From positions 832,001 through 896,000 of the forward strand of contig CM000434.1 of assembly GCA_000165345.1 (NCBI GenBank): a stretch of 64,000 nucleotides of DNA. The letters run 5' to 3'. The number at the start of each line of letters is the position of its first letter. Position 1 is the stretch's first letter. A program made the translations under genes and the position numbers. A model generated the notes under the pieces. It did not search any database. It was not told the DNA's origin and worked only from the letters and a program-made list of their open reading frames with translations. Positions 488-50,740 of the stretch are shown here, piece after piece.

Positions 488-3220
488 TTAGTAGTTACTA
501 TATAAAAGTGGGTTAGATACAGTCTTTGCATTAATTGGAGTGAATCTGAACCAAAAAGGCATCCAAGGAGTAATTCCAAAAGAAGAAGAATCTAGTATTA
601 ATACATCAGCATGCGTCCTGACTTGTGTATGTGTGGGATTATAAAGAGGATTTACAAGCTCTTTGTGGAATATTATAGAGGAATTTAGAGAAAGAAGGGA
701 TTCAACTTGGCCATTATCCAGATTACCTTTAGAATTATTCTTAATAGAATACATTATTGTATCCCATAAAGAAACCGTCGAATTTCTAGAATCTATACAA
801 AATCTCTCATACTCATTATCACAATGAAAATTCCCAAATAAACTATTATTTAAGTGATCAGCAATAATAATTAATAGGTTTGGATGAAATTGGAATTCTG
901 TTGGAAACTGATTATAGCATTGGTAAACACAATCTAACCATTGGATAAATATTGGAGATCTTTCTGACTCGTTTTCTAAACAAGATTCTTTGCCAGGAGT
1001 ACCAGATCTGGAATGAAATTTGTGACCAGAAAGTATGAATTCTTTTTCTATAAGTGAAAGAAATCCCTGAATTGTTCTGTAATAAGGGTCCATACAAAGC
1101 ATTGCAAGTGCTGTTAGTTGTGAAGTTCTATCCCATCCATCACTACAATGTACCAAAACTCCTTTTTCCCTAATCAAATGATCAACAATCTTATTTGATG
1201 ATGCAAGGATCATACTAATTAAGTCATACCAGCCTGTTGAATCTATTTCTGAAATCAACTTTAATCCCGTTAAATTCTCTGAATTATTCATTCTATTCAA
1301 AGAAGCAAGTACTGATTGAGCTTGAACAGAACTGATATCTCCTTGGTTAAGTAAATTCATCACTTTCTCAAAATTAGCATTACCAACACTCAAATCTTGA
1401 TTTGATGAAGTTTTTTGAATTACTGAAACCAACTTATTCCAAGAATCACGAACCTTATGGATATTTTCAATATTCAAAAACTCTAATTTACAATTGGTAT
1501 AATGATCAATATTCTCAAATCCAGCTCCTGTTGCTTTATTAGCAAATGCATTCAATTTTGGTCTAGCATCCAGTATTGCAAAAGGTCTTTCTTCTTTTGG
1601 GTCTCCATTATTTTTGTAAAAGCTGGAAATGGTTGTTATCATCATCTCGTCCTCAATACATCTTTTAAACGCAGATTTTGGCTGACTAGACCTCCATAGA
1701 GTGCACTTTAAATCTGGGTTTGTCCAGCTTAAAATTGGTATTCTTCCCTTTGATCTAAATGCTGCTACTTTAATTAGTTGTGAATCGGATATGTTTTCAG
1801 GAACCACAATTATTCTTGGGTATGAAGAACAAAGCTCGAAGTTTTGATTCACATTTGTGAATCTTAAAGGAAATCTTGAAGTATTTTCATTAATTAAACC
1901 TGATGATATTGGAACTCCTTGTCTATTATATTCTTTCAAAATATCAAACTCAAAAATCCCATTAATTGAAGAAAATAATGGTAAACTCTCAAAATTCTCC
2001 CTAAAAGTATACGAAAACAAGTTTTTATGCAAAGTCTCGTTCAGAATATTTTGAATACTATTTTGAATTAGCTTTTTGTCTTGCTCAGAGCTTACTATTA
2101 GAATTTGGATCGATCTCAAATCTTTGGTTGAAATATCCAATGTGTAAGTACAACTTTTGGAATTCATATTTATTTGGCCATTCTGCCCAATTCCTGAACC
2201 TCCAATTGTTGTACCTAATGACCCTACTAGATTCAAGTTATTTCCAATATATTGTCCTGGAATTGTATGGTTATTACTGCCTTCTGTGTTTACTCCATTA
2301 TTATCATTACCAGAAATCAAAGAGCTAACCCCAATCTGAGTTATTGAATGAATTGGAATATGAAGAAAGCCTGATTTGTACATCCAAGATACTGAAAATC
2401 TTTTTACTATTGTCAATGCTTTATTGTTAATATTCTTTTGGAAAAGAGGAGCAAGAATTATTCTAAAGTTTGTCATAATGAAGGATCCAAAAATAGGACC
2501 TACCAGACCTTGAGCAGAAATTCCACACTCTTTACTAAATAACAACAACTTTTCACCAGGAAGAAGTATAATACTCATATTTTTAGTTATATTCTCCGCA
2601 TCAGCCTCACAAATTTCCAGACTTGTATTTGATATTGGACCTTTATTATTATGAATCTTGGAAAGGATCTCTGACCATCTGGATAGATCCTGAGCCTTTT
2701 GATTATTGCTATTACTCACTATCATATTCGAAGTGGTTTCTCTTAATGCATTCTGTATTTGAGAACTAATATTCTGCGTTACTGTGTTTGCTAAAGAAGA
2801 AAATAAACCTGAAACACTTGTGGATGTTCTTAAATTTGAACTGGATTTATTAATATTTGTTGTGGGGTTACTGATATTACTTCGGCTCTCTGGTACTATT
2901 GTTGGAGAAGCTAGCATAGGCTTAACTTCAACTGATCTTCCTTGTGTGCTTGGAAATGGATCAAATAATGAAAGATCTTCTAAAGTTTTATTCAACGGCT
3001 TTTTATCCATATCAAAGTTCTGATATTGTGAATTTAAGTTATTATTATCTCTACCTTCAAAACAATCATTCAAGGATGAAACCTGCTTGTATATTGAAAG
3101 AGGATCATTACCAGCTTCTAATGACTGAAGATTTATTTCTTCACTCCCCTTATACACTGAGTTATATAATCTATCAGTGGAGTCATTTTCAGTACTAATA
3201 CTTCCTAATTCCCCATTCAT
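488..3220 (-). CDS. Myotubularin-related phosphoinositide 3-phosphatase
   Basis: The CX5R active-site motif VHCSDGWDRTSQ is present, within a long Asn/Ser-rich N-terminal region. The track ORF starts on TTG at 3259; the first ATG (MNGELGS) is at 3220. Confidence 0.85.
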   Translation of the reverse strand: MNGELGSISTENDSTDRLYNSVYKGSEEINLQSLEAGNDPLSIYKQVSSLNDCFEGRDNNNLNSQYQNFDMDKKPLNKTLEDLSLFDPFPSTQGRSVEVKPMLASPTIVPESRSNISNPTTNINKSSSNLRTSTSVSGLFSSLANTVTQNISSQIQNALRETTSNMIVSNSNNQKAQDLSRWSEILSKIHNNKGPISNTSLEICEADAENITKNMSIILLPGEKLLLFSKECGISAQGLVGPIFGSFIMTNFRIILAPLFQKNINNKALTIVKRFSVSWMYKSGFLHIPIHSITQIGVSSLISGNDNNGVNTEGSNNHTIPGQYIGNNLNLVGSLGTTIGGSGIGQNGQINMNSKSCTYTLDISTKDLRSIQILIVSSEQDKKLIQNSIQNILNETLHKNLFSYTFRENFESLPLFSSINGIFEFDILKEYNRQGVPISSGLINENTSRFPLRFTNVNQNFELCSSYPRIIVVPENISDSQLIKVAAFRSKGRIPILSWTNPDLKCTLWRSSQPKSAFKRCIEDEMMITTISSFYKNNGDPKEERPFAILDARPKLNAFANKATGAGFENIDHYTNCKLEFLNIENIHKVRDSWNKLVSVIQKTSSNQDLSVGNANFEKVMNLLNQGDISSVQAQSVLASLNRMNNSENLTGLKLISEIDSTGWYDLISMILASSNKIVDHLIREKGVLVHCSDGWDRTSQLTALAMLCMDPYYRTIQGFLSLIEKEFILSGHKFHSRSGTPGKESCLENESERSPIFIQWLDCVYQCYNQFPTEFQFHPNLLIIIADHLNNSLFGNFHCDNEYERFCIDSRNSTVSLWDTIMYSIKNNSKGNLDNGQVESLLSLNSSIIFHKELVNPLYNPTHTQVRTHADVLILDSSSFGITPWMPFWFRFTPINAKTVSNPLLYSNY

Positions 3221-26180: not shown

Positions 26181-26285
26181 TGCATGCATGCAATTTACAC
26201 GTAAGATTAAAAAAAGTGTGCATGTGGATGAATAACAATTGAACGAAGCTAATACCGGTATGTGAATTTTACATATTTACGTGGG
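26181..26285. promoter_or_regulatory. Motif module TGCATGCATGCAA-ACACGTAAG ... AATACCGGTATG ... TTTACGTGGG upstream of the giant gene
   Basis: Read directly. Confidence 0.45.
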
Positions 26286-35365: not shown

Positions 35366-36318
35366 TTAATTCTTGCTAAGTTGATTGCATCTATCTAGTG
35401 ATGAGTAAAGACAATCTTGAAAAATTTTCCCAATTAGTCGATCCTCAAGTATATCAATTCCTGCTTGAGTAGAACCTCCGGGAGTAGATACTTTTGATTG
35501 AAAAACTTGTGGATCAATGGAAGACTCAAAAAGCAACTTGGAAGTGCCATACATCGTTTCTATGACAAGCTTTCTTGCAAGATCCTCAGGAATCCCAATT
35601 TTGATTCCAGATTGTATGAAATGATGAGCAATATTAGAAAAGTACCCAGGCCCACATCCACTAATGCTAGTACAATGCGAGAAGATATCTTCATTAATTT
35701 TATAAACTGTACCACATGAACTCAAGATTTCAATGATTTCATTTGAGTTATTTTGTTTATACTTAGTAAAGTGTGCGACAGGATTTTCATAATAAAGCCA
35801 TGTTCCCTGACAAATTGACAAGGTTAAATTTGGCATTACTCTTATGCAGTGTATTTCATTTGACTGAAATTCCTTTAATATATCACTAATAGTTTTTCCT
35901 GCACAAACTGAAATTAATACTTTGTCGCCTGACTTTAGATCACTTTCTATATTCAAATTATTTATTTCACTTAGAATTTGGCTCAAAATATGTGGTTTTA
36001 CGCATATAAATATTAATTCGGAATTACCAACTAAACTTTGAAAATTTTCTGATATATTAATTCCAGAGAATTCTCTCTTAAGTGATTCTAGCGAATTTTT
36101 ATTAGAATCAAATAAAAAAATTTGATCAGATTTTATTTTTTCGGACGATAAAAACCCTGATATAATTGCATTTGCAATATTTCCACACCCAATAAAACCT
36201 AAATATTGTTTTTAAATTATTATGATCAAAATTAAGAAAAATTAATTTTAATTGTAAACACTCCAACAGTATTATTAACCATTGCAATTCACATACCTAT
36301 TTTTCTCTCTGATATCAT
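35366..36318 (-). CDS. Pyrroline-5-carboxylate reductase, 2 exons: 36297-36318 and 35366-36198
   Basis: The track ORF (35366-35986) extends upstream in-frame to LGFIGCGNIANAII (Rossmann GxGxxA) with no ATG. A 22-nt first exon ATGATATCAGAGAGAAAAATAG, donor GTATGT and acceptor ATATTTAG (98-nt intron) give MISERKIGFIGCGNIANAII... The C-terminal VSTPGGSTQAGI motif is typical of P5CR. Confidence 0.75.
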
Positions 36319-36410: not shown

Positions 36411-36500
36411 TCCCGCCAAAATTCGTCAATTGCATGTAAGTCGTCCACAAAAATGCATGTAAATACCGGTTTATGAAAAAATGTGTATGACACGTGTATA
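36411..36500. promoter_or_regulatory. Motif module CCCGCCAAA ... TTGCATGTAAG ... ATGCATGTAAATACCGGTTT ... GACACGTGTAT
   Basis: Lies in the divergent promoter between the P5CR gene and the mucin gene. Confidence 0.45.
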
Positions 36501-36906
36501 TCAATTTTTTCAAAAAAAAATAGTGGGTATGACATCATAAATAGAAGCAGTTGCATGCGAAAGAAAAGTATTAAATTTTACATAAATTCGAGAGTTGTAT
36601 TATAATCATAATAAAAACAAAATAAAGATAGTAAATGTAAGGAAAGAATAAAAAGAAAGAATACAAAAAGAATATGATTAACAAAAAAAGTTAAAACTAA
36701 AGAATAAAGTTAAATATATTTGAGATTTACAGATATTTAATAACGTAATTATAAGTTAAATTGAAGATAGTATACATGGACATTAATAGGATTGAAATAA
36801 GATAGAAAAGTTAAAATACGAGAGAAAAAACTTAATATAAAGGGAACAAAAGCTAAGAGGCAATTAATATAGCAAAAGAAAAAGAAAATTCAATTAATTG
36901 TTTGAA

Positions 36907-39900
36907 ATGTTTACAGGGAGTGACTTGAAAAACTTAGTATTGAAAACTCTATTATTATTGCTACTGGAATACCTTATCATCAACTTTCCAGGAGTCTCAT
37001 CAATTGATGAAAAGGTTCAGGAAAGGAAAGATGATCCAGTAGCACATATGGACCCTGCCCCACCAATACTATTTAAGGAAATGAAAAGTCCAATTGTAGG
37101 AGTGGGTGATATTTGTTTTGGAAACAACTGTAACTATTACCAAGAAAGTAAAGAAAATAGTCCATCCAAAGACAGAGAAAGCTATCATTCAGTTGGTTCC
37201 AAAGTTACAAGGTATATATGTATATTATTATCAGAAAATACTTTTACTAGGGAAAAAGAGGCAGATTTGTTTTTTGAAAGATTAAATGAATATACAGAAA
37301 CTTCAGAATTGCCATTTTCATATGTTGAATTTTACGAGAAACTTGGAGTTTTTGTAATTGATGTTAGATCCAGTATTAAAGAGTATGAAGAACGCAGTAT
37401 ATTTCCCTTGGCTGAAGGTTTGAAACTTATCAAAAAGTTAGATATTTTAAACAAGGCTGACTGTACTAAAGATTCTCTTTTAAGTGAACAATCGGTATTT
37501 ACAAGTGGAAATGAAGATAAATCTACTGAGAATTACAGTAATAGCTATAAGTGGAATTGGAGCAGTATTCCTAATAATTTTGTAAATTTTAATCGAATCT
37601 TGAAATCCGAAGAGTCTCAAGGAAATATTACGAATAACAATCAAGGCACAGAATATTTAACAGATGAAGCAAAGCTATACAAAGAGTTGGATGGTTACTT
37701 TTTGAAAAAGTTCAATGAAGCATCTAATCTACTTAATAAACTAAATATGTTCTCTTCCCCATCCTCTTCATCATCAAATTTCAATAATCCTACTGTTTCA
37801 TCAACATCATTTTCCGGAGGGAGGCAATCTTCTCTTTGGAATGCACTCAACTTTTTATCCAGTTTCTCAAATAAGGAAGAAAAGTCTAGATCTACGCCAA
37901 TCCAGGAAATTGAAGATCCAATTTTTGGAAAAATGGACCCAACAGATGGTAATTCTAAATTAACAATATCTCCACTATACCTTCTTGGGATGAATCTCAA
38001 AGGAAAAAACATTACAGAGCTATCTCAAAAGTTCAAAAATCAAACATCTCCTATCGTTCCTGTAGATATGTCTAGAGAAGATATTAGCTTGGACAATGAT
38101 CTTGCAATGAATATAGCAACAGTAATCTTCAAAGGAATGAGTGATTCCGCTGCAAAGCTTCCACCTCCTTTTGGGAACCCTGCAGTCAAAAATGAGCAAA
38201 AGTTTCCAGAATATAATTACAAAAACCATATAAATTATCTTGAAACAAATGCAAATAATAACTATTATAATTCCCCATCAATCTCTAACTGGAGTTATAA
38301 ACCCATACCACAGGGTAACAATAATGTAATTGGTGGATATGAAAATGACCAAAGCCAACTCAATATTCAAAGTGATCACTTTAAAGGAGGAAGTTTTCAT
38401 CCAAGTTCAAGTAATAATGCTATCAATACAATTGATAATTCCATTATTGGATTTAATAGTGTTTCTCAAGTTAACTCAAATAGTAATTCTAATAAAGTAG
38501 GAGTTCATTCTCAATCTGGTTCTGGCTTAGCTCCAAATATTTTTGAATCAATAGATACATGGGGAAAACAGAGCTCAGCTTATCAATCAACTTCTTCTTC
38601 CGCCTCCCCTCCATCATATTATGCAACAAATGGTATTAAAACTATTAATCCAAATCAAGTGACTTCTAATGGAAAGAGTAATCCTGATTTAAAAGTACCA
38701 ACCATTAATTCTCCATCAACTTCAGAATGGATGAGAAAGACTATTTCAAAGCAAAATGAGGGTGGGATAAAGCAACCGTCATTTATTAACAGTCAAAATA
38801 ATCAAACAGAAATTAATAAATTTGCAAATAATATGAACCAAAATACCCCCCCAATTGTTAATTCAAATGGTAATCACTTTAATTCTCCATTTTCACAGCT
38901 TTCAAAGTTTTCTAACAATCCATTCCATGGAAATTCTGCCGGAACAACATTTGTCAAAATGAATGGTAGTGTTTTTGATGATGATAATGATATCACTTCT
39001 TTCCATCCTGAAGGATTTATCAATAAACTTCCAGAACATGTACAAAAGAATATGACTCAATCTCAAAGAGACAAAATTAACTTAATAAATGCATTTATTG
39101 GTACTGGATTTGATACAATTCTTCAGATGAATAATATAGATTCTAGTTCAAGTTATGGTAATCAGAATAATGATTTCTTTAGAAGTTCTCCTCCAAAAAG
39201 AAGATTATTTGAGATTGACTCTTCAACAAGAGGAAACAAAATGGTGATTGATGAAAACATGAAAGACCCGAATTTAAGTGATCAATCAAATAAAGAATAT
39301 GAAATGTATGCCAAATTGCTGAGTAATATTGATACGAACCAAGGTCAAGATACTGCAATGGCCTATGTGACAGGATGTGATTGTGATAGATTTCCTGAAG
39401 GAGTTGCATGTCCCATGGTGCTTTCAGGAGAAGCGAATATTGAATGTATTGGGTATAAAGTTTGGAATAGTGCAAGAAAAGGTGCTCCATTGAGTGAGAT
39501 AGCTTCAGCAATAGATTCTGCAATTACTTCTAAAGCAAGAAATATTATTTTGCCTTTAAAGTTTGATACAAAGACAATTGAAGAAAATCGAGCAGCTCCA
39601 AGAATTTTGAGGCACATCATGAGAAGAACTTCAAGAGAGAATGGAATACTATTTGCCTTACCAACAGGAAATAATGGTAAGCAGGAGTTGGATGGAAGCT
39701 TAGACTTTCCTTGCGACGATTTGACAGGAATGTACGCTTTTTGTGTGGGTTCAATTAACAACAAAAATGGAATGCCTTCGAGTTTTTCCAATGTTCCTCA
39801 GTTAAATAATGCAATCTATGCTAATGGTGAGGATGTTGAATCAATTGGAATAAATCAACAAAGACGATTATTTTCTGGTACCGGTATTGCTTTAGCTCAA

Positions 39901-42900
39901 TCAATTGGTGCTTTAAATATTATTCAAGGTATTACAAAGGATAAAACGAGCTCATTTGACCAGCTTGCTATCCTGTACAGTGCCCCTAAAAAACTTCCAT
40001 CAAGGAATTTTTTGGAGCAGCTTTTTGCAAACTCGAGTCCGATTACATTCAAGCCTCAACAGCAACAACAACAATTCCAGAAACAAAGCTCTAGGAACGA
40101 GACAGGTTCTTCAGATCCTGTTTTAATGTTTGGTATGGGATCTGGAAACAATACAAATGGTGCTTTAGGATCAGTATCTCATGAAAGGATCATGAATTCG
40201 AGTCTAATGAGTGGAAATAGAGACAATGATTTAGATGCAATAATGGCCAGGATTGAGAGCATTGAAAAAAGTCTTGCAAAGTCAGGTTTAGATGGTGGCA
40301 CCGTTTTCAAGGGAGAATTTCCAGTTGGTGGTCCATTTTCTTCACCTTCTGATTCCTCTACTTTCTCATCCTCTTCCACTACCACAACTACTACAACCAC
40401 CAGTCCAGTCAGCACTACAACTTCCAATGCTTCTACTCTAACCAATATAACCACAGAAATTCCTCAAATATTAAATTATACAAACATAAGTAGTTCCAGT
40501 ACATCCACTCCTTCTATTAGTCTCAACACTTCTACCCCTAACATCGTAACAACTCTTCCCTCTAACATCACAACAAACCCTCCTTCCAGCATCACGACAA
40601 ACCCTCCTTCCAGTATCAAAACAAACCCTCCTTCCAGCATCGTAACGACACCTTCCTCCAACATCGCAACAAATACTCCTTCCAATATCACTACTACCAC
40701 CACCACCAGTCCTTCCAGAACTCCCAGAGCCTCTAATCCTCCTCTTACGGAAAACAAAGAAGAAGAATATGGTCACTATAAGGAATCTAACTATAGTCCA
40801 GAAATAATAGGAGTTGTTCTAGATCCAAAGGAAGTAACTGAAGTCTCCAGATTAGTTCATTCCAGTAATGAACATTATAATGAGTACTATGATAGATATG
40901 GAAATCATGATACTGTTGATCACGAATATGAAAATGACGATGGGTACCGACAATACTATATTGATGGAAATGAAGACAAGAATCACAACTACGGCAATAC
41001 ATTTAATTCAGAGGAAAATATGTCAAGAAATCTTTGTTATGAAGAGGAAACCAGGTTTTACAGTCCCTTAGAAATGGCTATACCCGTAGATAATATTGAG
41101 CAGTGTATATTATCCTGTAGTAATACCCCAGACTGTAGATACTATTCGTATGGAGCATTCCTTAAAGGCCCTGGAAGCATTATTGGGACATGTATATTAA
41201 TGCCTGATAAACAAGGATCGGTAGCTTTACCAAACTTCCAATCTGGAGCTCTAGGATGCCCAGTTTCTGCTAGTATTGCTTATGCTCAGGCTATGGAAGA
41301 AAGACTAATACAAGGTATTAGTAATGCAAATGAAAATAGTCAAAAAAGTTCTTCTGCTCAAGTTAATAACAATTTAAACTCGGATTGGCCAGGCATACTT
41401 TCCACCTCTACTGTAGCAGTTAAAAGTATGAGTGGATTCTTATCTAGATTTCCTCTCAACGATATACTTCAAACAAGTATTTCCTTATATAATTCAGGAT
41501 TTCTCGATCAAAAAGGTGCTTTAAGACCAAGTGGAGCTTTTGAAAAGCAAAGTATATTACCCCCTCCTGGAGTTGGATCTCCACATGTAGTATGTACCCT
41601 ACAAGGTATGCAATGTTGTGTCCCACAGAAATCTGCTAAAGGATGGAGAAAAAAGCCACCAAGTTTTCTTAGAGTTGAAGATCCTTCATGCGAAGCTATT
41701 TATGTCTCAAAAACAGATATGTTCTGTGCAACCACATCATTATATGATAACCAGGATATCTCTTCATCAGGATATAATTCACTTGATGATTTTAGAAGCC
41801 AACCCTCATTTTCATCAAATTCTTATAGTACTAATCCAAAACCTTCAGGAAGCTGTGGAATGGTTATAATTGAAACAAGTGAGCATCTTATTTTTCAAAA
41901 CACTCTAAAAATGCCTTCTAAAGAGATGAATAATGCATTATGTGAATGTAAGCTGAATAAAAGAGATAAAAGCATACATGGATCTGGTACTTGGGAATAC
42001 TCAGTACAAGCAGTACAAGCTGCAATGAGTCGCAAAGTTGAAGGAGATCAACTTTCTTCTGGAGTTGCTCAAGCTTTAGCTTGGGTAGAAGCAGTTGGGA
42101 ATGATCCAAATCCAGCAGTGAATGGACTTGGTGAGCTTATTTCCCAAGTTGCTCAAAGACCAAATTCAGATGTTGAGTTAATTACTCAGATACCTGCAAT
42201 TAGTCAAAATGCTGTTTCTAATATGCTTTACAATCAACAACAACAACAGATTGAAGAGCAAGAACAAATTATTAAGAAACAACAATCTATTCAGCAATAC
42301 AATAATATGAGATATTTATTATCTCAAAATGAAACTGATACTAATAACGCTAACACTCAAAGTCAATCAGATCAATGTGTAACAAGTTGGCCAGAAAAAT
42401 GTCAAATTTGGAAATCTAAATGTGAGGATAACTTAATATATGGTTATAAAAATCCTCAATGCGTACCATTGACTATTTTAGAGAATGGATGTCCAATGAA
42501 ACAGGTTGGATTCAAGGTGAATCAAATAAATCCAGGAATTTTGAGCTTCAGTTTTAAACCTATGAGATTTTCAGATAATTCACCATTCAGAATTGCTTGT
42601 CAGTTTTCACTCATCAAATGTACTCTAGCAAATATTAAAAGCAAATGTAAATCAAATGGTACTAATAACTTTAAGAAACCAAAGAATTTGAACGGAGACG
42701 ATGAAAACAATGCAATTAATAACATTAGAAAACATTTAAATAATCATAAAAATCAAAATAATAATAAAAATAACAACTTATTTCACAGAAAAGACACTAA
42801 TGATAAAAGTAAAAATAATGAACTAAAACATTTATTCAAAATTCCAATGAACTATCTTCCGTATATTCCAAAAGATACAGGAGAAAGTGACGAGAAATCT

Positions 42901-43716
42901 GAGAATATTGTAGCAAAGTATATTAGAGTCCATTTTCCTCAAGCAGGAAACTTTTCAAATATGACAATGGTAAAACTATTAAACAAAGAGACTAAGAGAG
43001 AATTTGCAGCAAAAATGATTAATGAGGAGGAAATACCAAAAAACAATACTATTGAGGATGTATTAATTGACGAGAATTCAAATTTTGAGTATCTTGGTAA
43101 GGTAGAGATAGTTACTCAAGATGAAAATGATGAGGACTACTCAACTATTAAATATGAAAATACATCAATTATTTCTGATAGAATGGGAGTTGATATTGAA
43201 AATAAGGATGTTATTTTCAGTCATCTTATAAAGTCAAGCAACGAAAGTAAAATATACAAAGAACCTTTGCTTTTAGATAAATATCAACCAGATTTTACAG
43301 GTGAATCATTTCCTGAATTCAAGATGGAGAAAGTTGTAATTCCTAATGAAAAAAGTACTGAAAATGAAATATCTCAGAGTTTTAATAAAGATTACAACTC
43401 TGAATCAAAATTAGGAACAAACGAAAAAAAAGAAAATTGGAATAATCACCAAAATGAAAATGGAGATTTGGATGAATATGAAGACTTATACTACTATGGA
43501 TTTGAAAATGATTATGGAAGCAATCATAGCAAGAATCAAATTAGTGACTTTATTCCTTTCATTTCAACCAATAACAAGAAAAACAAATGGGAAGTTCAAA
43601 TAAACAAATCTTCTGGAGATAATAGAAATATACAATATAAAATAACCAAAAAGAATATTCTTTTATTTATATTTGCTTGTTATACTCCTATAATTCTCAT
43701 GTTTGGTTTTATTTAA
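36907..43716 (+). CDS. Giant secreted mucin-like glycoprotein (2270 aa) with PAN/apple domain, Thr/Ser-rich tandem repeats and hydrophobic C-terminus (GPI-anchor signal or TM)
   Basis: The track ORF starts on TTG at 36898; the first ATG at 36907 gives signal peptide MFTGSDLKNLVLKTLLLLLLEYLIINFPGVSS. Poly-Thr/Ser tracts (TTTTTTTSPVSTTTSNASTLTNITT..., NPPSSITT repeats) are present. The PAN/apple-like Cys pattern CILSCSNTPDCRYYSY...GTCILMP lies at about 41100-41210. Several Cys-rich modules lie downstream. The C-terminus is ILLFIFACYTPIILMFGFI. Confidence 0.8.
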   Translation: MFTGSDLKNLVLKTLLLLLLEYLIINFPGVSSIDEKVQERKDDPVAHMDPAPPILFKEMKSPIVGVGDICFGNNCNYYQESKENSPSKDRESYHSVGSKVTRYICILLSENTFTREKEADLFFERLNEYTETSELPFSYVEFYEKLGVFVIDVRSSIKEYEERSIFPLAEGLKLIKKLDILNKADCTKDSLLSEQSVFTSGNEDKSTENYSNSYKWNWSSIPNNFVNFNRILKSEESQGNITNNNQGTEYLTDEAKLYKELDGYFLKKFNEASNLLNKLNMFSSPSSSSSNFNNPTVSSTSFSGGRQSSLWNALNFLSSFSNKEEKSRSTPIQEIEDPIFGKMDPTDGNSKLTISPLYLLGMNLKGKNITELSQKFKNQTSPIVPVDMSREDISLDNDLAMNIATVIFKGMSDSAAKLPPPFGNPAVKNEQKFPEYNYKNHINYLETNANNNYYNSPSISNWSYKPIPQGNNNVIGGYENDQSQLNIQSDHFKGGSFHPSSSNNAINTIDNSIIGFNSVSQVNSNSNSNKVGVHSQSGSGLAPNIFESIDTWGKQSSAYQSTSSSASPPSYYATNGIKTINPNQVTSNGKSNPDLKVPTINSPSTSEWMRKTISKQNEGGIKQPSFINSQNNQTEINKFANNMNQNTPPIVNSNGNHFNSPFSQLSKFSNNPFHGNSAGTTFVKMNGSVFDDDNDITSFHPEGFINKLPEHVQKNMTQSQRDKINLINAFIGTGFDTILQMNNIDSSSSYGNQNNDFFRSSPPKRRLFEIDSSTRGNKMVIDENMKDPNLSDQSNKEYEMYAKLLSNIDTNQGQDTAMAYVTGCDCDRFPEGVACPMVLSGEANIECIGYKVWNSARKGAPLSEIASAIDSAITSKARNIILPLKFDTKTIEENRAAPRILRHIMRRTSRENGILFALPTGNNGKQELDGSLDFPCDDLTGMYAFCVGSINNKNGMPSSFSNVPQLNNAIYANGEDVESIGINQQRRLFSGTGIALAQSIGALNIIQGITKDKTSSFDQLAILYSAPKKLPSRNFLEQLFANSSPITFKPQQQQQQFQKQSSRNETGSSDPVLMFGMGSGNNTNGALGSVSHERIMNSSLMSGNRDNDLDAIMARIESIEKSLAKSGLDGGTVFKGEFPVGGPFSSPSDSSTFSSSSTTTTTTTTSPVSTTTSNASTLTNITTEIPQILNYTNISSSSTSTPSISLNTSTPNIVTTLPSNITTNPPSSITTNPPSSIKTNPPSSIVTTPSSNIATNTPSNITTTTTTSPSRTPRASNPPLTENKEEEYGHYKESNYSPEIIGVVLDPKEVTEVSRLVHSSNEHYNEYYDRYGNHDTVDHEYENDDGYRQYYIDGNEDKNHNYGNTFNSEENMSRNLCYEEETRFYSPLEMAIPVDNIEQCILSCSNTPDCRYYSYGAFLKGPGSIIGTCILMPDKQGSVALPNFQSGALGCPVSASIAYAQAMEERLIQGISNANENSQKSSSAQVNNNLNSDWPGILSTSTVAVKSMSGFLSRFPLNDILQTSISLYNSGFLDQKGALRPSGAFEKQSILPPPGVGSPHVVCTLQGMQCCVPQKSAKGWRKKPPSFLRVEDPSCEAIYVSKTDMFCATTSLYDNQDISSSGYNSLDDFRSQPSFSSNSYSTNPKPSGSCGMVIIETSEHLIFQNTLKMPSKEMNNALCECKLNKRDKSIHGSGTWEYSVQAVQAAMSRKVEGDQLSSGVAQALAWVEAVGNDPNPAVNGLGELISQVAQRPNSDVELITQIPAISQNAVSNMLYNQQQQQIEEQEQIIKKQQSIQQYNNMRYLLSQNETDTNNANTQSQSDQCVTSWPEKCQIWKSKCEDNLIYGYKNPQCVPLTILENGCPMKQVGFKVNQINPGILSFSFKPMRFSDNSPFRIACQFSLIKCTLANIKSKCKSNGTNNFKKPKNLNGDDENNAINNIRKHLNNHKNQNNNKNNNLFHRKDTNDKSKNNELKHLFKIPMNYLPYIPKDTGESDEKSENIVAKYIRVHFPQAGNFSNMTMVKLLNKETKREFAAKMINEEEIPKNNTIEDVLIDENSNFEYLGKVEIVTQDENDEDYSTIKYENTSIISDRMGVDIENKDVIFSHLIKSSNESKIYKEPLLLDKYQPDFTGESFPEFKMEKVVIPNEKSTENEISQSFNKDYNSESKLGTNEKKENWNNHQNENGDLDEYEDLYYYGFENDYGSNHSKNQISDFIPFISTNNKKNKWEVQINKSSGDNRNIQYKITKKNILLFIFACYTPIILMFGFI
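40549..40692 (+). repeat. In-frame 24-nt tandem repeat, about 6 copies (unit acaaaccctccttccagcatcacg, encoding TNPPSSI[T/K/V]), degenerating at both ends
   Basis: Three near-perfect copies at 40573-40644 are flanked by diverged copies. Confidence 0.8.
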
Positions 43717-43901
43717 GCATAGGAAAAACTACCCCACAGAATAATCATTCCAACTCTTCATGAATTACTTTGAAATAAAAAAAAAGATTTAAAAGGGAAC
43801 TAAGAAAAATTACAAAAATACCTAAGCAATAAAATTTGATTTCTTCCTCCTTCCCCCCATAAATCTAATATTAAAAATTTTTTAAAAAAAATATATAAAA
43901 A

Positions 43902-43949
43902 GGTACCCGGTACCTTTTTTTTGAAAGAAATTATATATGCCGGTATATT
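43902..43949. promoter_or_regulatory. GGTACC-C-GGTACC palindromic doublet flanked by A5/T6, plus ATGCCGGTATAT
   Basis: aaaaaggtacccggtacctttttt...atgccggtatatt lies 3' of the mucin gene and about 480 bp upstream of the TRAPP gene. Confidence 0.35.
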
Positions 43950-44421
43950 ATTTAACGGTGTGAAGATTAGCAAGAAAACTTTTTTTTTATTTAGGATCAT
44001 GGAAACTTGAAAGATTTGAGTTTTAATAGAGAAACAGTCAAAGCAGCTTTTTTTTTTTCTTCCTTTTATAACTCTAACTTAAGACACCAATAAATGGTGG
44101 ATCTGGAAATAAATATATATTAATATATTTCGATAATTCACCCGAAGTAAAAATTTGAAAATGCTGAAAATTGATAGGCAAAATAAAAAAGGGGCCTCTC
44201 AACCATTAGAAAGAAATATTATGAAATGTTCTCCTGAAGTAAGTTTTGAAAATGAGTAGGAAAGTTGGAGAAATGTATTTATAAATGTTATATTATATGC
44301 ATTACCAATTCCTTTATTTATTTGATTTCAACGTTATTATTATTCTATTTATATAAAATTCAAATTTTAAATATTTAAATATTAGATTAATTTAAGTTCC
44401 TTTGCATTTTTATTTTCTGAA

Positions 44422-45111
44422 ATGGTTCAATATTCCCTATCTTGCCTGAAACCAGGAATTAGGCTTGAAGATAAGTAAGTTGATAAAATATTGACTTTAT
44501 TACCTTTGATGGATTGCAAATTGTTAATTATTAACTCTTTTAAAATTAAAGACTTCATGAAATGGGGATTTCTGTTGGATTTAAAATAGTTGAGCTAATT
44601 TCAATTAGAGATAAAGCTCATCAAAAAAGAGAAACTAGAATACTTCAAATTCTTTCTTTTATATCTCAAAAGTGTTGGAAGTATTTATTTGGACATACTG
44701 GGGATTTACTTAAAGGGCAGGAATCTGATGATGAATGTAAGTTGAAAAATTATGATTTAAAGCTCAGAAAACCAAGAATATTTAAATTTCTTTTTCTCAG
44801 ATATGATCAATGATAAAAATCTTCTTTTAAACAAATTCATCTCTGTACCAAGGGTAGGTAGTGTTTGAATATTATTACAATAATAATAATTTTAACAAAA
44901 TGATTAATTAACCAATATTTAGGATCTTGAACATATTAATTGTGGTGCATATGCTGCAGGAATTGTATCAGGTATTCTAGATAGTTCAGAATTTCCTGCC
45001 AATGTGACAGCTCATACCACTGAAGATACCCCAAATAACTATAGTACAACCATTTTGATTAAATTCGACAAATCTGTACTTCTTAGAGATAAATCTATTC
45101 AATCATTTTAG
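44422..45111 (+). CDS. TRAPP complex Bet3-family subunit (Trs33/TRAPPC6-like), 4 exons: 44422-44474, 44552-44736, 44801-44853, 44923-45111
   Basis: Donors GTAAGT, GTAAGT and GTAGGT; acceptors ATTAAAG, TCTCAG and ATATTTAG; introns 77, 64 and 69 nt. Product is 159 aa. LHEMGISVGFKIVELI...SFISQKCWKYLF...YMINDKNLLLNKF...CGAYAAGIVSGIL...TAHT parallels TRAPPC6 (LENMGFRVGQGLIERF...KFICKDFWTTVF...YVLQDNKFRLL...CGLIRGGLSNL...TAEV). Only exon 2 appears in the track, as ORF 44562-44813. Confidence 0.7.
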
Positions 45112-45225
45112 TGAATAACTTTTTACTCATTTTCACTCTTATTTACAGAATTAGCTTGAATAATTATTTATATCAATATTAGATTATATACTTGATTACC
45201 AATAATTGTTGAATAATAAAAACCA

Positions 45226-47136
45226 TTATAAATTACAGAATCTATATATAGTCACAGAATATTTAGGCACATTCAACATATAGGATACATTATTTTCTGC
45301 AGAATCTTGTATTGAATACTTGATTTGCCCTTTTTTAGGGCTTGTATAGCTACCATCCCATCCTCCGTATTCTTCAGATTGAGAATTAAACTCTTGCTTC
45401 AATTCCCTACCAAAAGATTGGATAATGTTCTGATCTATCTTAACTTGGTAATTATTTTCAAGCCATTCAGTTTTATCCATATTTACAACACATAAAAATG
45501 CTTTGTCCTTGCTTTTTCTAATAAAAACAACGACAAAGTTTGACGTGTTTACATTAAAATGAGAGAAGTTATTGTAATTTGAGGCAAATACTTCTTTTTC
45601 TTTAGTTTTAAGAAGATTGATATCTTTAACCAATTTTCTCATTTGTTGTGTGACTTGGTCATTATTCTTAATTAATCCCCAATCATAGTTATAAGCTTTA
45701 TCTTTAGCTGACCACCATTTCCCTTGTAGATTCTCTGTACCCATAAAAACCATTGGTATTCCAAAAGATATACAAGATAATGAATACAATAACCTACAGT
45801 ATGCTCTTGCATCCCAATTTTGTCTTCCACCAAATTGATCTACTATATATCTCCCAATGCGATCATCACCAGAGGGATTACCACCATTACATCTATTCCC
45901 AGCTTGATCATGATTCCCTAACATTGTTAGAATGCATTGACTAGTGGAATCAAACCCACTGTGACCTTGTATTAGAGATTTAGAATATCCAGAATTCCAT
46001 TCTTGCTGAGTTTTTTGGTTCCTAAACTGAGAAATAATATCATAATATGATGAGTGAATCCAACATGAATCAAATCCACATTCTTTTAAATAGTTTGGGT
46101 TTTCAGGTACAACTTCTGCAATTAGAAACCTACCAGGAAATTCTTCCTTCAATCTAAATGTGATATTCTTCAATAACCAGTTTGGCATATTATGAACACT
46201 ATCAAAACGTATTCCATCAACTCCATACTCACCCAAAAGTACTCTACATGCTTCATATAACATATCTTGTACTTCTTTTTTATGGAAATTGAATTTGGCT
46301 CCCCAGCCAGTATCACCACCTCCCTCAAAGTATATTCCTCCTTGGTGATTATATCCATCAAAATTCCATAGTGAGTTAAGCTTGGATGCTCCGTGATGAA
46401 GAACTAAATCTACAACAATAAATAAATCTTTTTCATGGACTTTCTGGACTAAATATATGAAGTCATCAACCGACCCTAAGTGACTATTAATACTTAATAG
46501 TAGCCTTGGGTTATAGCCCCATTCTCCACAATACTCTACAATAGGCATAAGCTCTAAACAATTAAAGTTTAAATCCTTAATGTTGTCGAGCCCATAGTCA
46601 GCAATTTGCCTAAAAAAGCTCGGGTTCTTGCTAAATTTTGCTTCAGATTGAAGTGGAAAGTACTCTGAAAATCTTCGAATGTAACTTTCAACGTGTAACT
46701 CATAAATAATTAAATGATTAAACTCATGTTTTTTTAAATATTCTCGAATTGACTTATTAAAGTTTCCAAGAGTATCAGTAATGTAAGATGAATCAGTATC
46801 ATAATCAGTATATCTAGCATAAGGATCCCTCCTTGTTATTTTTTCTCCATTTGATGTTTCCAACAGAAAGTGATACCTTTCATTCATATTCACATTTTTC
46901 ATTATCACTCTTTTTATATTTATTTCATCGTCATTTTCCATTAAGAAGCTTTCATTTGTACCACTATTTACGAGCCAAACATTCTTACAATGCACTACCC
47001 ATAACCTAAAAATACATATACCAAATTCTTTATAAAACATTGCTCCCATCTTTTTTTCCTGTTTCTTAATGTAATTTGGCAACTCTTCATATTTAATTTG
47101 ACTCCATTCAACCTTTTCATTTCTCAATTCACTCAT
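45226..47136 (-). CDS. Glycoside hydrolase family 13 protein, 1,4-alpha-glucan branching-enzyme-like (amylopectin/glycogen metabolism)
   Basis: The four GH13 conserved regions are present: DLVLHHGAS (I), GIRFDSVHNM (II, catalytic Asp), FLIAEVVPE (III, catalytic Glu) and LGNHDQ (IV). An N-terminal CBM48-like segment is also present. The ATG is verified. Confidence 0.8.
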   Translation of the reverse strand: MSELRNEKVEWSQIKYEELPNYIKKQEKKMGAMFYKEFGICIFRLWVVHCKNVWLVNSGTNESFLMENDDEINIKRVIMKNVNMNERYHFLLETSNGEKITRRDPYARYTDYDTDSSYITDTLGNFNKSIREYLKKHEFNHLIIYELHVESYIRRFSEYFPLQSEAKFSKNPSFFRQIADYGLDNIKDLNFNCLELMPIVEYCGEWGYNPRLLLSINSHLGSVDDFIYLVQKVHEKDLFIVVDLVLHHGASKLNSLWNFDGYNHQGGIYFEGGGDTGWGAKFNFHKKEVQDMLYEACRVLLGEYGVDGIRFDSVHNMPNWLLKNITFRLKEEFPGRFLIAEVVPENPNYLKECGFDSCWIHSSYYDIISQFRNQKTQQEWNSGYSKSLIQGHSGFDSTSQCILTMLGNHDQAGNRCNGGNPSGDDRIGRYIVDQFGGRQNWDARAYCRLLYSLSCISFGIPMVFMGTENLQGKWWSAKDKAYNYDWGLIKNNDQVTQQMRKLVKDINLLKTKEKEVFASNYNNFSHFNVNTSNFVVVFIRKSKDKAFLCVVNMDKTEWLENNYQVKIDQNIIQSFGRELKQEFNSQSEEYGGWDGSYTSPKKGQIKYSIQDSAENNVSYMLNVPKYSVTIYRFCNL

Positions 47137-50644: not shown

Positions 50645-50740
50645 CACACATGTGGACAAATAATTCAATACCGGTATTTCGTAATATGACAAAATTGCAT
50701 GCACATACGTGTAAAAAAAGTTTGCATGCAATTACGTGGT
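50645..50740. promoter_or_regulatory. Motif module ACACACATGTGG ... CAATACCGGTATTTCG ... TTGCATGCACATACGTG ... TTGCATGCAATTACGTGG
   Basis: Lies about 700 bp upstream of the 51438 gene, just 3' of the 48103 gene. Confidence 0.4.

Follow-up and report, generated by a model that had tools for sequence, protein, structure and literature searches.

cgd6_3730 of Cryptosporidium parvum: a female-specific transcript encoding a predicted surface protein with a subtilisin-like domain, a PAN domain and candidate zona pellucida-like modules

How should a large, mucin-like and apparently secreted protein of Cryptosporidium parvum be understood when databases call it a subtilisin? This question is raised by the gene cgd6_3730, which lies in a 64,000-nucleotide stretch of the genome (NCBI GenBank assembly GCA_000165345.1, contig CM000434.1, positions 832,001 to 896,000 of the forward strand), here called the window and numbered from its first letter, with a G+C content of ~30%. 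The open reading frame (ORF) at 36907-43716 (+) begins with an ATG at 36907, ends with a stop codon at 43714-43716, and holds 2269 codons with zero internal stops. Its translation is 100% identical to EAK89986.1 of C. parvum Iowa II. The peptide SSASPPSYYAT, found at amino acids (aa) 564-574 of the ORF protein, is the immunogen reported for cgd6_3730 at that same position (PMC8710574), so the ORF is the annotated C. parvum gene cgd6_3730. It forms a complete single-exon coding sequence of 2269 aa plus stop (36907..43716, +), as indicated by the identity to EAK89986.1 and by 8 colinear Cryptosporidium sequences. The initial annotation of this stretch had proposed a 2270-aa ORF; the ORF is real, but that length counts the stop codon. 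A possible split by frameshifts was also checked, and the reading frame was found unbroken, with the full match to EAK89986.1. An in-frame TTG at 36898 was rejected as the start, being an artifact of the bacterial start-codon rule.

Existing annotation already covers the cgd6_3730 gene, its signal peptide, its PAN domain and its hydrophobic tail. Loss of the catalytic triad from the subtilisin-like domain, an architecture shared family-wide across Apicomplexa and chromerids, and modules resembling those of zona pellucida (ZP) proteins appear not to have been described in the literature searched. No ZP domain linked to an apicomplexan protein was found among the best-ranked matches of a broad literature search, and nothing was found in the literature under the accessions Q5CWU1, EAK89986 and CPATCC_002934. 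It is proposed here, at a little better than an even chance, that cgd6_3730 encodes a modular surface glycoprotein, transcribed in female gametes and most likely anchored by glycosylphosphatidylinositol (GPI), that is a non-enzymatic binding or matrix protein combining a PAN domain, a dead protease and a ZP-like pair. From N- to C-terminus, the protein would consist of a signal peptide, an N-terminal domain, the dead subtilisin, a mucin stalk, PAN, a ZP-N-like domain, a linker, a ZP-C-like domain and a GPI signal.

An exhaustive profile search yielded 38 relatives, with sources including C. muris, C. serpentis, the gregarines Selenidium, Ancora and Polyplicarium, as well as Rhytidocystis, Cardiosporidium, Neospora, Besnoitia and the free-living chromerid Vitrella; parasites of marine invertebrates are among them. 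As read from the alignments, cgd6_3730 belongs to an old family in which a pseudo-subtilisin, PAN, a ZP-N-like unit, a ZP-C-like unit and a GPI-type tail are found in Cryptosporidium, gregarines, Rhytidocystis, Cardiosporidium and Vitrella.

A subtilisin-like domain without its catalytic triad

UniProt and UniRef label cgd6_3730 and its orthologues "subtilisin", and the gene has been placed under GO:0004252, the term for serine-type endopeptidase activity (PMC11078545, file 4). The source of these names is a subtilisin-like domain at aa ~719-1045 that the initial annotation had overlooked. This S8 pseudo-protease domain (aa 719-1045; 39061..40041, +), which contains a variable insert at aa 743-798, was recognized by hhalign comparison with subtilisin BPN' and by a profile match to the structure 7xr8. 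The family alignment matched BPN' (query sequence identical to PDB 1sbn) at 92-94% probability (E 5e-7 to 9e-8), the aligned stretch running across 240-250 columns and BPN' 16-271; this match is significant only with distant orthologues added to the alignment, and the hhalign comparison of a Cryptosporidium-only profile with BPN' was not significant (prob 0.2). In a separate search, a profile built from aa 755-1050 of six Cryptosporidium sequences matched one solved subtilisin, 7xr8, at E 0.0044, pairing PTGNNG with AAGNEG and SGTGIALAQ with SGTSMATPH. A phmmer search of the region against the PDB gave zero matches.

In the alignment to BPN', each residue of the catalytic triad is substituted: Asp32 corresponds to Gly732 (39100-39102), His64 to Gln814 (39346-39348), and Ser221 to Gly993 (39883-39885). 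The oxyanion residue Asn155 is retained as Asn922 (39670-39672). All four of these residues are invariant across eight Cryptosporidium sequences. The position of Ser221 is occupied by Gly, Ala or Tyr in all orthologues compared except those of Vitrella and Selenidium serpulae. At the oxyanion position, the apicomplexan orthologues compared from outside Cryptosporidium have Asp, and Vitrella has Asn. Selenidium serpulae retains "GHDTAVA" and "GTSMA". The Vitrella orthologue retains the His, Asn and Ser motifs together with the subtilase insert "DDDGNGFVDD", with Gly at the Asp32 position, and the PDB matches of its S8-like domain were subtilisins in 5/5 cases. Because Asp, His and Ser are replaced by Gly732, Gln814 and Gly993, the domain of cgd6_3730 cannot be a serine protease; on this sequence evidence it is a subtilisin-fold pseudo-enzyme without catalytic capacity. 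Since all three catalytic residues are missing, the database name "subtilisin" and the Gene Ontology (GO) term for serine-type endopeptidase activity are probably wrong, which affects protease inventories and drug-target lists.

The S8 fold is common to cgd6_3730 and the apicomplexan SUB1 proteases CpSUB1 (cgd6_4840), PfSUB1/PvSUB1 and TgSUB1, and the "DDDGNGxVDD" insert of the Vitrella orthologue also occurs in the SUB1 structures 8coy and 4lvn. TgSUB1 is GPI-anchored, a further likeness to cgd6_3730. Unlike these SUB1s, cgd6_3730 has substitutions at the catalytic Asp, His and Ser, is unmatched by the Pfam S8 model, is far larger, carries adhesive modules and has no recognized I9 prodomain. 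An I9 prodomain at aa ~95-190 was considered and is unsupported, with an hhalign probability of 0.08 against an unverified BPN' prosegment sequence.

The variable loop of the S8-like domain contains the string RRLFE (aa 765-769; 39199..39213, +), picked out by motif search and alignment, and no other RxLx[EQD] (PEXEL/TEXEL-like) motif occurs among the 2269 aa of the protein. Within this otherwise variable loop, K764-E769 is invariant in eight aligned Cryptosporidium sequences, and RRLxE-type motifs are found in the corresponding loop of gregarines and Rhytidocystis. RRLFE may be a processing site for an aspartyl protease. Gregarines and Vitrella have a second RRL-type motif directly before the ZP-C-like domain.

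Cysteine-rich modules resembling ZP-N and ZP-C

The initial annotation had noted Cys-rich modules beyond PAN that it could not place; they are present, and their best matches are to ZP-N and ZP-C, the two parts of the ZP module. The first unit after PAN (aa ~1493-1780) is family-wide, with eight conserved Cys and the motifs PPPGxGxPxVxC..GMxCCVP, CG(M/L)...(F/Y)-(Q/R)-N-x-L and MNNAxCEC. Within it, a ZP-N-like domain was delimited at aa ~1559-1685 (41581..41961, +), with a low-complexity insert at aa ~1615-1647, on the evidence of hhalign, a Pfam ZP-N match in an orthologue, and shuffles. Cys1563, 1595, 1650 and 1681 align with C1-C4 of ZP-N, and four more conserved Cys are present. When the first unit of 15 family members was scanned against Pfam, ZP-N was the top family, appearing in 3/15, with the best match in the Polyplicarium orthologue (18.3 bits, E 0.003, profile positions 1-78/101).

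Profile comparisons were made with uromodulin (UMOD) and ZP3 templates, whose sequences were checked against the PDB. The family alignment of the ZP-N-like unit (A6) matched a combined ZP3 and UMOD profile at 26% probability (P 7e-4) and a UMOD/GP2 ZP-N profile at 65-72% (E 4-6e-5), the latter match covering the entire ZP-N; in the hhalign alignment, the string GSCGMVIIETSEHLIFQNTL of this unit is paired with its UMOD/GP2 ZP-N counterpart. In 100 column shuffles used as a control, the score had a mean of 13.1, a standard deviation of 2.7 and a maximum of 27.4, compared with 36.6 observed; the reversed alignment scored 14.3.

The second unit, a ZP-C-like domain at aa 1824-1916 with eight Cys (42376..42654, +), was delimited by hhalign, by Pfam matches in orthologues and by shuffles. 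It matched UMOD/GP2 ZP-C at 49-59% probability (E 1-2e-4) over the C5-C8 part of uromodulin. The alignment pairs "EKCQIWKS" with "TNCYATPS", "ILENGCPMKQ" with "IIQDRCPHTRD", and SFSFKPMRFSDNSPFRIACQFSLIKC with its uromodulin counterpart. Control shuffles reached a maximum of 19.9 and the reversed alignment 17.4, compared with 32.5 observed. In Pfam, the Zona_pellucida (ZP-C) family was matched by the second unit of Selenidium (20.3 bits, E 6.5e-4) and of a GHVP transcriptome protein (16.1 bits), and the only other Pfam match of this unit was to one toxin family at E 1.7. A PDB profile search with the alignment of the aa 1816-1920 region (A7) found uromodulin at E 0.084. The Flo11 adhesion domain (4uys, 4uyr) was also matched by A7, at E 0.011-0.013 over "GCP..." and the following strands, and was treated as probably a chance match. 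Flo11, which ranked above uromodulin in this search, is likewise a cell-surface adhesin (a yeast flocculin). Finally, in a 24-pair hhalign matrix, only three combinations scored, namely S8-like domain and BPN', unit 1 and ZP-N, and unit 2 and ZP-C, and the other 21 pairs had probabilities of <=1.2%.

Between the two ZP-like parts lies a linker (aa 1691-1780; 41977..42246, +) with 96-100% identity across Cryptosporidium, which is probably helical as judged from a low-confidence model. The overall layout resembles that of uromodulin and GP2, which are secreted, heavily glycosylated proteins with ZP-N followed by ZP-C near the C-terminus and then a GPI-type signal; their ZP-N Cys, CGT...Y-x-N-x-L motif and ZP-C C5-C8 region align with cgd6_3730. 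Unlike those proteins, cgd6_3730 shows a match that is remote and sub-threshold, its first ZP-C half and internal hydrophobic patch were not found, its spacer is longer and probably helical, a furin/hepsin-type site was not found, and it has extra Cys. In C. elegans LET-653 and NOAH-1 and in Drosophila NompA, PAN/apple domains stand directly upstream of ZP in membrane-tethered extracellular matrix proteins. The PAN-then-ZP order of these invertebrate proteins is like the order of PAN and the putative ZP part in the cgd6_3730 family; unlike them, cgd6_3730 belongs to the Apicomplexa/chromerid lineage and adds a pseudo-subtilisin and a mucin stalk.

Surface signals, PAN domain, mucin-like tract and genomic setting

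Both ends of the protein carry features of a surface molecule. A hydrophobic core spans aa 7-33, as seen by hydropathy, N-termini are hydrophobic in all orthologues, and the protein was scored signal-peptide positive in the supplement to PMC2575384, all in agreement with the signal peptide first proposed from the sequence. The predicted signal peptide covers aa 1-32 (36907..37002, +), with cleavage predicted after VSS by a reading of the -3/-1 rule. At the other end, the last 19-20 residues (aa 2250-2269) are hydrophobic and are followed by zero residues, and the TMHMM topology given for the protein is o2251-2268i (PMC2575384 supplement). A GPI-attachment signal is predicted at aa 2235-2269 (43609..43713, +) from this layout, from orthologue tails and from the TMHMM result. 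In it, a small-residue patch, SSG, supplies the candidate omega site, Ser2235; a polar spacer of 13 residues follows, and the final 19 residues are hydrophobic. All Cryptosporidium orthologues end in 14-20 hydrophobic residues preceded by a polar spacer and a small-residue patch (KSSGDN, KASAAN, or SSSS...NSG). The orthologues of Rhytidocystis, Cardiosporidium, Ancora and Polyplicarium have the same tail layout in unrelated tail sequence, which bears out the GPI-type C-terminus initially annotated. The tail is thus most likely a GPI-attachment signal and not a transmembrane anchor with a tail, the anchor itself being a prediction; no experimental lipid anchor for the cgd6_3730 protein is reported in the literature searched.

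The PAN/apple domain (aa 1377-1451; 41035..41259, +) was likewise recognized from the outset as a six-Cys module and is supported by Pfam PAN_1, by alignment and by the listing of PAN_1 at 1377..1451 in the supplement to PMC2575384. Its apple pattern, C1377-x22-C1400-x3-C1404-x5-C1410-x18-C1429-x21-C1451, is invariant in 8 orthologues. PAN_1 scored 25.2 bits on the isolated region aa 1360-1470, above the gathering threshold of 21.4, 19.8 bits in a whole-protein scan, and 22.7-35.7 bits in orthologues. PAN was the sole family found in Pfam scans of the whole C. parvum protein and six sub-regions. Six-Cys PAN/apple domains also occur in the secreted apicomplexan proteins TgMIC4, EtMIC5 and Cryptosporidium cgd1_3550 and cgd2_1590; unlike the PAN/apple micronemal lectins, cgd6_3730 has a single PAN, was non-micronemal by immunofluorescence and is transcribed specifically in females.

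Between the S8-like and PAN domains lies a Thr/Ser/Pro mucin-like tract (aa 1136-1290; 40312..40776, +), identified by composition, 24-nt repeats and length variation. Ser and Thr make up 40% of aa 1101-1300, and Pro makes up 16% of the second half of that region. Within the tract, a run of eight Thr (T8) occurs at aa 1158, and the NPPSSI unit appears three times, at aa 1224, 1232 and 1240; a 24-nt tandem repeat (40566-40691, 5.2 copies) codes for the NPPSSITT units. The Thr-rich character initially noted is thus present. This composition suggests that the tract is O-glycosylated. A length-polymorphic Thr/Ser/Pro-rich tract is also found in the Cryptosporidium mucins gp900, GP60 (gp40/15) and Muc25, and the gp15 part of GP60 is GPI-anchored. 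Unlike in these mucins, the mucin tract is ~7% of cgd6_3730, and constrained globular domains dominate.

The contrast between stalk and globular domains is evident from comparison with C. ryanae. The mucin tract shows 16% identity with many gaps, whereas identity is 81% in the S8-like core, 92% in PAN, 97% in the segment before ZP-N, 83% in the ZP-N-like part, 96% in the linker, and 73% in the ZP-C-like part. Between C. parvum and C. hominis, 17/17 gap positions fall inside the mucin tract. Since identity is high in the domains and gaps are confined to the mucin tract, the globular modules are under purifying selection, with strong constraint, and the stalk is free to vary. Two further conserved regions were delimited in the protein. 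An N-terminal domain with four Cys (aa 55-200; 37069..37506, +) is defined by invariant alignment columns among Cryptosporidium sequences; within it, R-[YIV]-[IV]-C-[VIL]-L and DC[TS]xD are motifs that also occur in gregarines and Vitrella. A Cryptosporidium-specific conserved region, "C4" (aa 1975-2070; 42829..43116, +), was defined by alignment.

Several relatives depart from the common gene structure or architecture. The C. muris orthologue consists of two adjacent genes, CMU_016980/CMU_016990, with the break inside PAN; C. serpentis has a single 1943-aa ORF, and the two-gene annotation is probably a gene-model or assembly split. Neospora caninum BN1204_000500 and Besnoitia BESB_010910, of ~2000 aa, carry a ZP-N-like unit and a helical segment at the extreme C-terminus; subtilisin-like, PAN and ZP-C-like parts were not detected in them, and their architecture differs from that of cgd6_3730. 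Among metagenome and transcriptome relatives, P0039, P0046/P0072, P0045 and P0043 have one or two PAN domains and a ZP-N-like unit without a subtilisin-like domain; P0039 also carries a ZP-C-like unit, giving the PAN and ZP order of invertebrate matrix proteins. Clustering at 90% identity groups the C. canis orthologue with proteins from the neighboring gene, TRAPP subunit 5 / "41-2 protein antigen", to which it is unrelated, and this mixture is probably a clustering artifact from a fused gene model (a 2338-aa entry).

In the window, the neighboring ORFs at 35366-35986 (-), 43717-45225 and 45226-47136 (-) agree with the published gene order of cgd6_3720 (pyrroline-5-carboxylate reductase), cgd6_3730, cgd6_3740 (TRAPP subunit 5) and cgd6_3750 (alpha-amylase). 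The minus-strand ORF at 35366-35986 encodes 206 aa and is missing the N-terminal portion, pointing to an intron or to a start that lies upstream of the ORF.

Female-specific transcription and candidate functions

The cgd6_3730 transcript is listed as "Female specific" with a value of 9.25 (PMC11078545, file 3), derived from RNA-seq of macrogamonts isolated by fluorescence-activated cell sorting versus asexual stages (Tandel et al.). In the same study of differentiation modulators, all inhibitor values listed for cgd6_3730 were negative, with log2 fold changes of -1.9 to -5.2, and the inducer value was +1.23 (PMC11078545). The sequence TGCATG(T/C)(G/A), the binding motif of the AP2 factor cgd2_3490, is enriched in the promoters of 65 co-regulated macrogamont genes, and file 6 of that study includes cgd6_3730 and its promoter (PMC11078545). 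Three TGCATGYR motifs are present at 36431, 36454 and 36552 (36431..36559, +), 476, 453 and 355 bp before the ATG. The window as a whole contains 33 TGCATGYR motifs vs 4.9 expected, a number reached in 0/100 shuffles, and clusters of the palindromic TGCATGCA are found outside cgd6_3730, for example at 26181-26226, 50696-50730 and 63257-63268. At the protein level, tandem mass tag mass spectrometry has quantified cgd6_3730 in excysted oocysts, and its level did not change when cowp8 was knocked out (PMC12548878, S7 Table). Antiserum raised against aa 564-574 labeled the pellicle of sporozoites, with stronger signal anteriorly, along with some granules, and the protein was judged non-micronemal (PMC8710574).

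The ZP-like assignment has to be weighed against the alternative that the likeness arose by chance or by convergence of Cys-rich, beta-rich modules; the C-terminal domains would then have a lineage-specific fold, and cgd6_3730 would be a pseudo-subtilisin and PAN protein. A number of observations favor that alternative or count against the reading proposed here. The Pfam scores of orthologues lie below gathering (ZP-N 18.3 vs 24.7; ZP-C 20.3 vs 24.6), the C. parvum sequence itself matches no Pfam ZP model, the hhalign probabilities are moderate (49-72%), and the ZP template profile is narrow, being built from UMOD/GP2-type proteins alone. The PDB profile search with A6 gave a coiled coil at E 2.4 alone and no ZP protein. 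The ZP-C match is limited to the C-terminal half (Pfam positions ~53-133/133; UMOD module 170-261), leaving half of ZP-C unmatched, and neither the N-terminal half nor the internal and external hydrophobic patches were located; the ZP-N-like part has 8 conserved Cys, not 4. The C4-to-C5 spacer is roughly at least 110 residues vs 84 in uromodulin and looks helical, and a furin-type RX[KR]R site occurs nowhere in the whole protein, hence not after the ZP-C-like part. AlphaFold models of aa 40-1060 and 1290-2269, built from 6-sequence alignments, had a mean predicted local distance difference test score (pLDDT) of 29 each (29.3 for aa 1290-2269) and are unusable for fold comparison. The list extends beyond the ZP-like part: Pfam Peptidase_S8 (PF00082) is unmatched at E<=10 in the C. 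parvum protein and likewise in orthologues, the 34 residues between candidate omega site Ser2235 and the C-terminus would make a rather lengthy GPI signal, the immunofluorescence was done with a crude antiserum to one peptide on sporozoites alone, and macrogamont localization of the protein is not reported in the literature searched. Arguing the other way, two independent modules match the two parts of a single known module, and do so in its proper order. All four ZP-N Cys fall in register together with the CG...Y/F-x-N-x-L motif, and so do C5, C6 and C7 of ZP-C and the "F-S-x-x-x-F-R-F...C" strand. Scores are ~8 standard deviations above 100 column shuffles with reversed alignments at background, cross and decoy comparisons are all at background, and the curated Pfam ZP-N and ZP-C are the top-scoring Pfam families for the two regions. 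On balance, the likelier interpretation of the alignments is genuine homology to ZP, or a common fold at the least, and chance or convergence is considered unlikely, if by no means negligible.

The other alternatives concern function. The initial annotation matched the protein's architecture to apicomplexan adhesin/mucin families used for host attachment, and it would then be a mucin-like sporozoite-surface adhesin for attachment to host cells or mucus and for invasion, similar to gp900, GP60 and the PAN-domain MIC proteins. Secretion, the mucin-like tract and the PAN/apple domain hold, and the anteriorly stronger staining of the sporozoite pellicle with some granules (PMC8710574) and the presence of the protein in excysted oocyst material are consistent with this role. 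It is made doubtful by a transcript that is female-specific and co-regulated with macrogamont genes (PMC11078545), by the judgment of the authors of PMC8710574 that the protein is non-micronemal, and by an analysis of protection in which the cgd6_3730 array fragments carry the default grey flag and are not among the highlighted antigens (PMC10425216). The protein also lacks a TRAP/MIC-type transmembrane segment and cytoplasmic tail, with zero residues after the hydrophobic tail, and since marine-invertebrate parasites and the free-living Vitrella share its architecture, that architecture is not one tuned to the gut of a vertebrate host. A role as a sporozoite adhesin is therefore regarded as rather improbable. 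Far less probable still is the active subtilisin-family serine protease that the UniProt name and the GO term imply. The database names, the listing under GO:0004252 (PMC11078545, file 4), the real S8 fold homology and the retained oxyanion Asn922 point toward it, but the triad positions hold Gly732, Gln814 and Gly993 throughout Cryptosporidium, compared orthologues other than those of Vitrella and Selenidium serpulae carry Gly, Ala or Tyr in place of Ser, and Pfam Peptidase_S8 matches none of the family members scanned.

In the reading as a non-enzymatic surface glycoprotein, cgd6_3730 is transcribed in macrogamonts, and its protein persists in oocysts and on the sporozoite pellicle. It may act without catalysis, by binding or by forming a matrix. 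PAN and the inactive protease cleft could serve as ligand-binding modules, the mucin tract as a spacer, and the ZP-like pair as a module for self-association or recognition, comparable to that of GPI-anchored ZP proteins in animals. The protein would act on the surface of the female gamete or zygote, or else under the oocyst wall or inside the oocyst. The GPI anchor, O-glycosylation, polymerization or recognition, and processing at RRLFE are what we infer from sequence.

How Cryptosporidium females interact with male gametes has been called "a mystery" (PMC13657310, a 2026 review). According to the same review, early females express proteins, both secreted and membrane-bound, with a presumed role in fertilization, and oocyst-wall genes come next (PMC13657310). 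The female-specific transcription of cgd6_3730 together with its ZP-like module makes it a concrete candidate for a part in fertilization or in assembly of the oocyst matrix. More broadly, and only tentatively, at somewhat below an even chance, apicomplexans and free-living chromerids may possess a true, very divergent ZP module (ZP-N and ZP-C) joined to PAN and a dead subtilisin, made in Cryptosporidium by the female gamete. If this is true, ZP-type "egg-coat" modules would not be confined to animals, and cgd6_3730 would become a candidate in the recognition between male and female gametes or in construction of the zygote and oocyst matrix, both of them unsolved steps in the transmission of Cryptosporidium.

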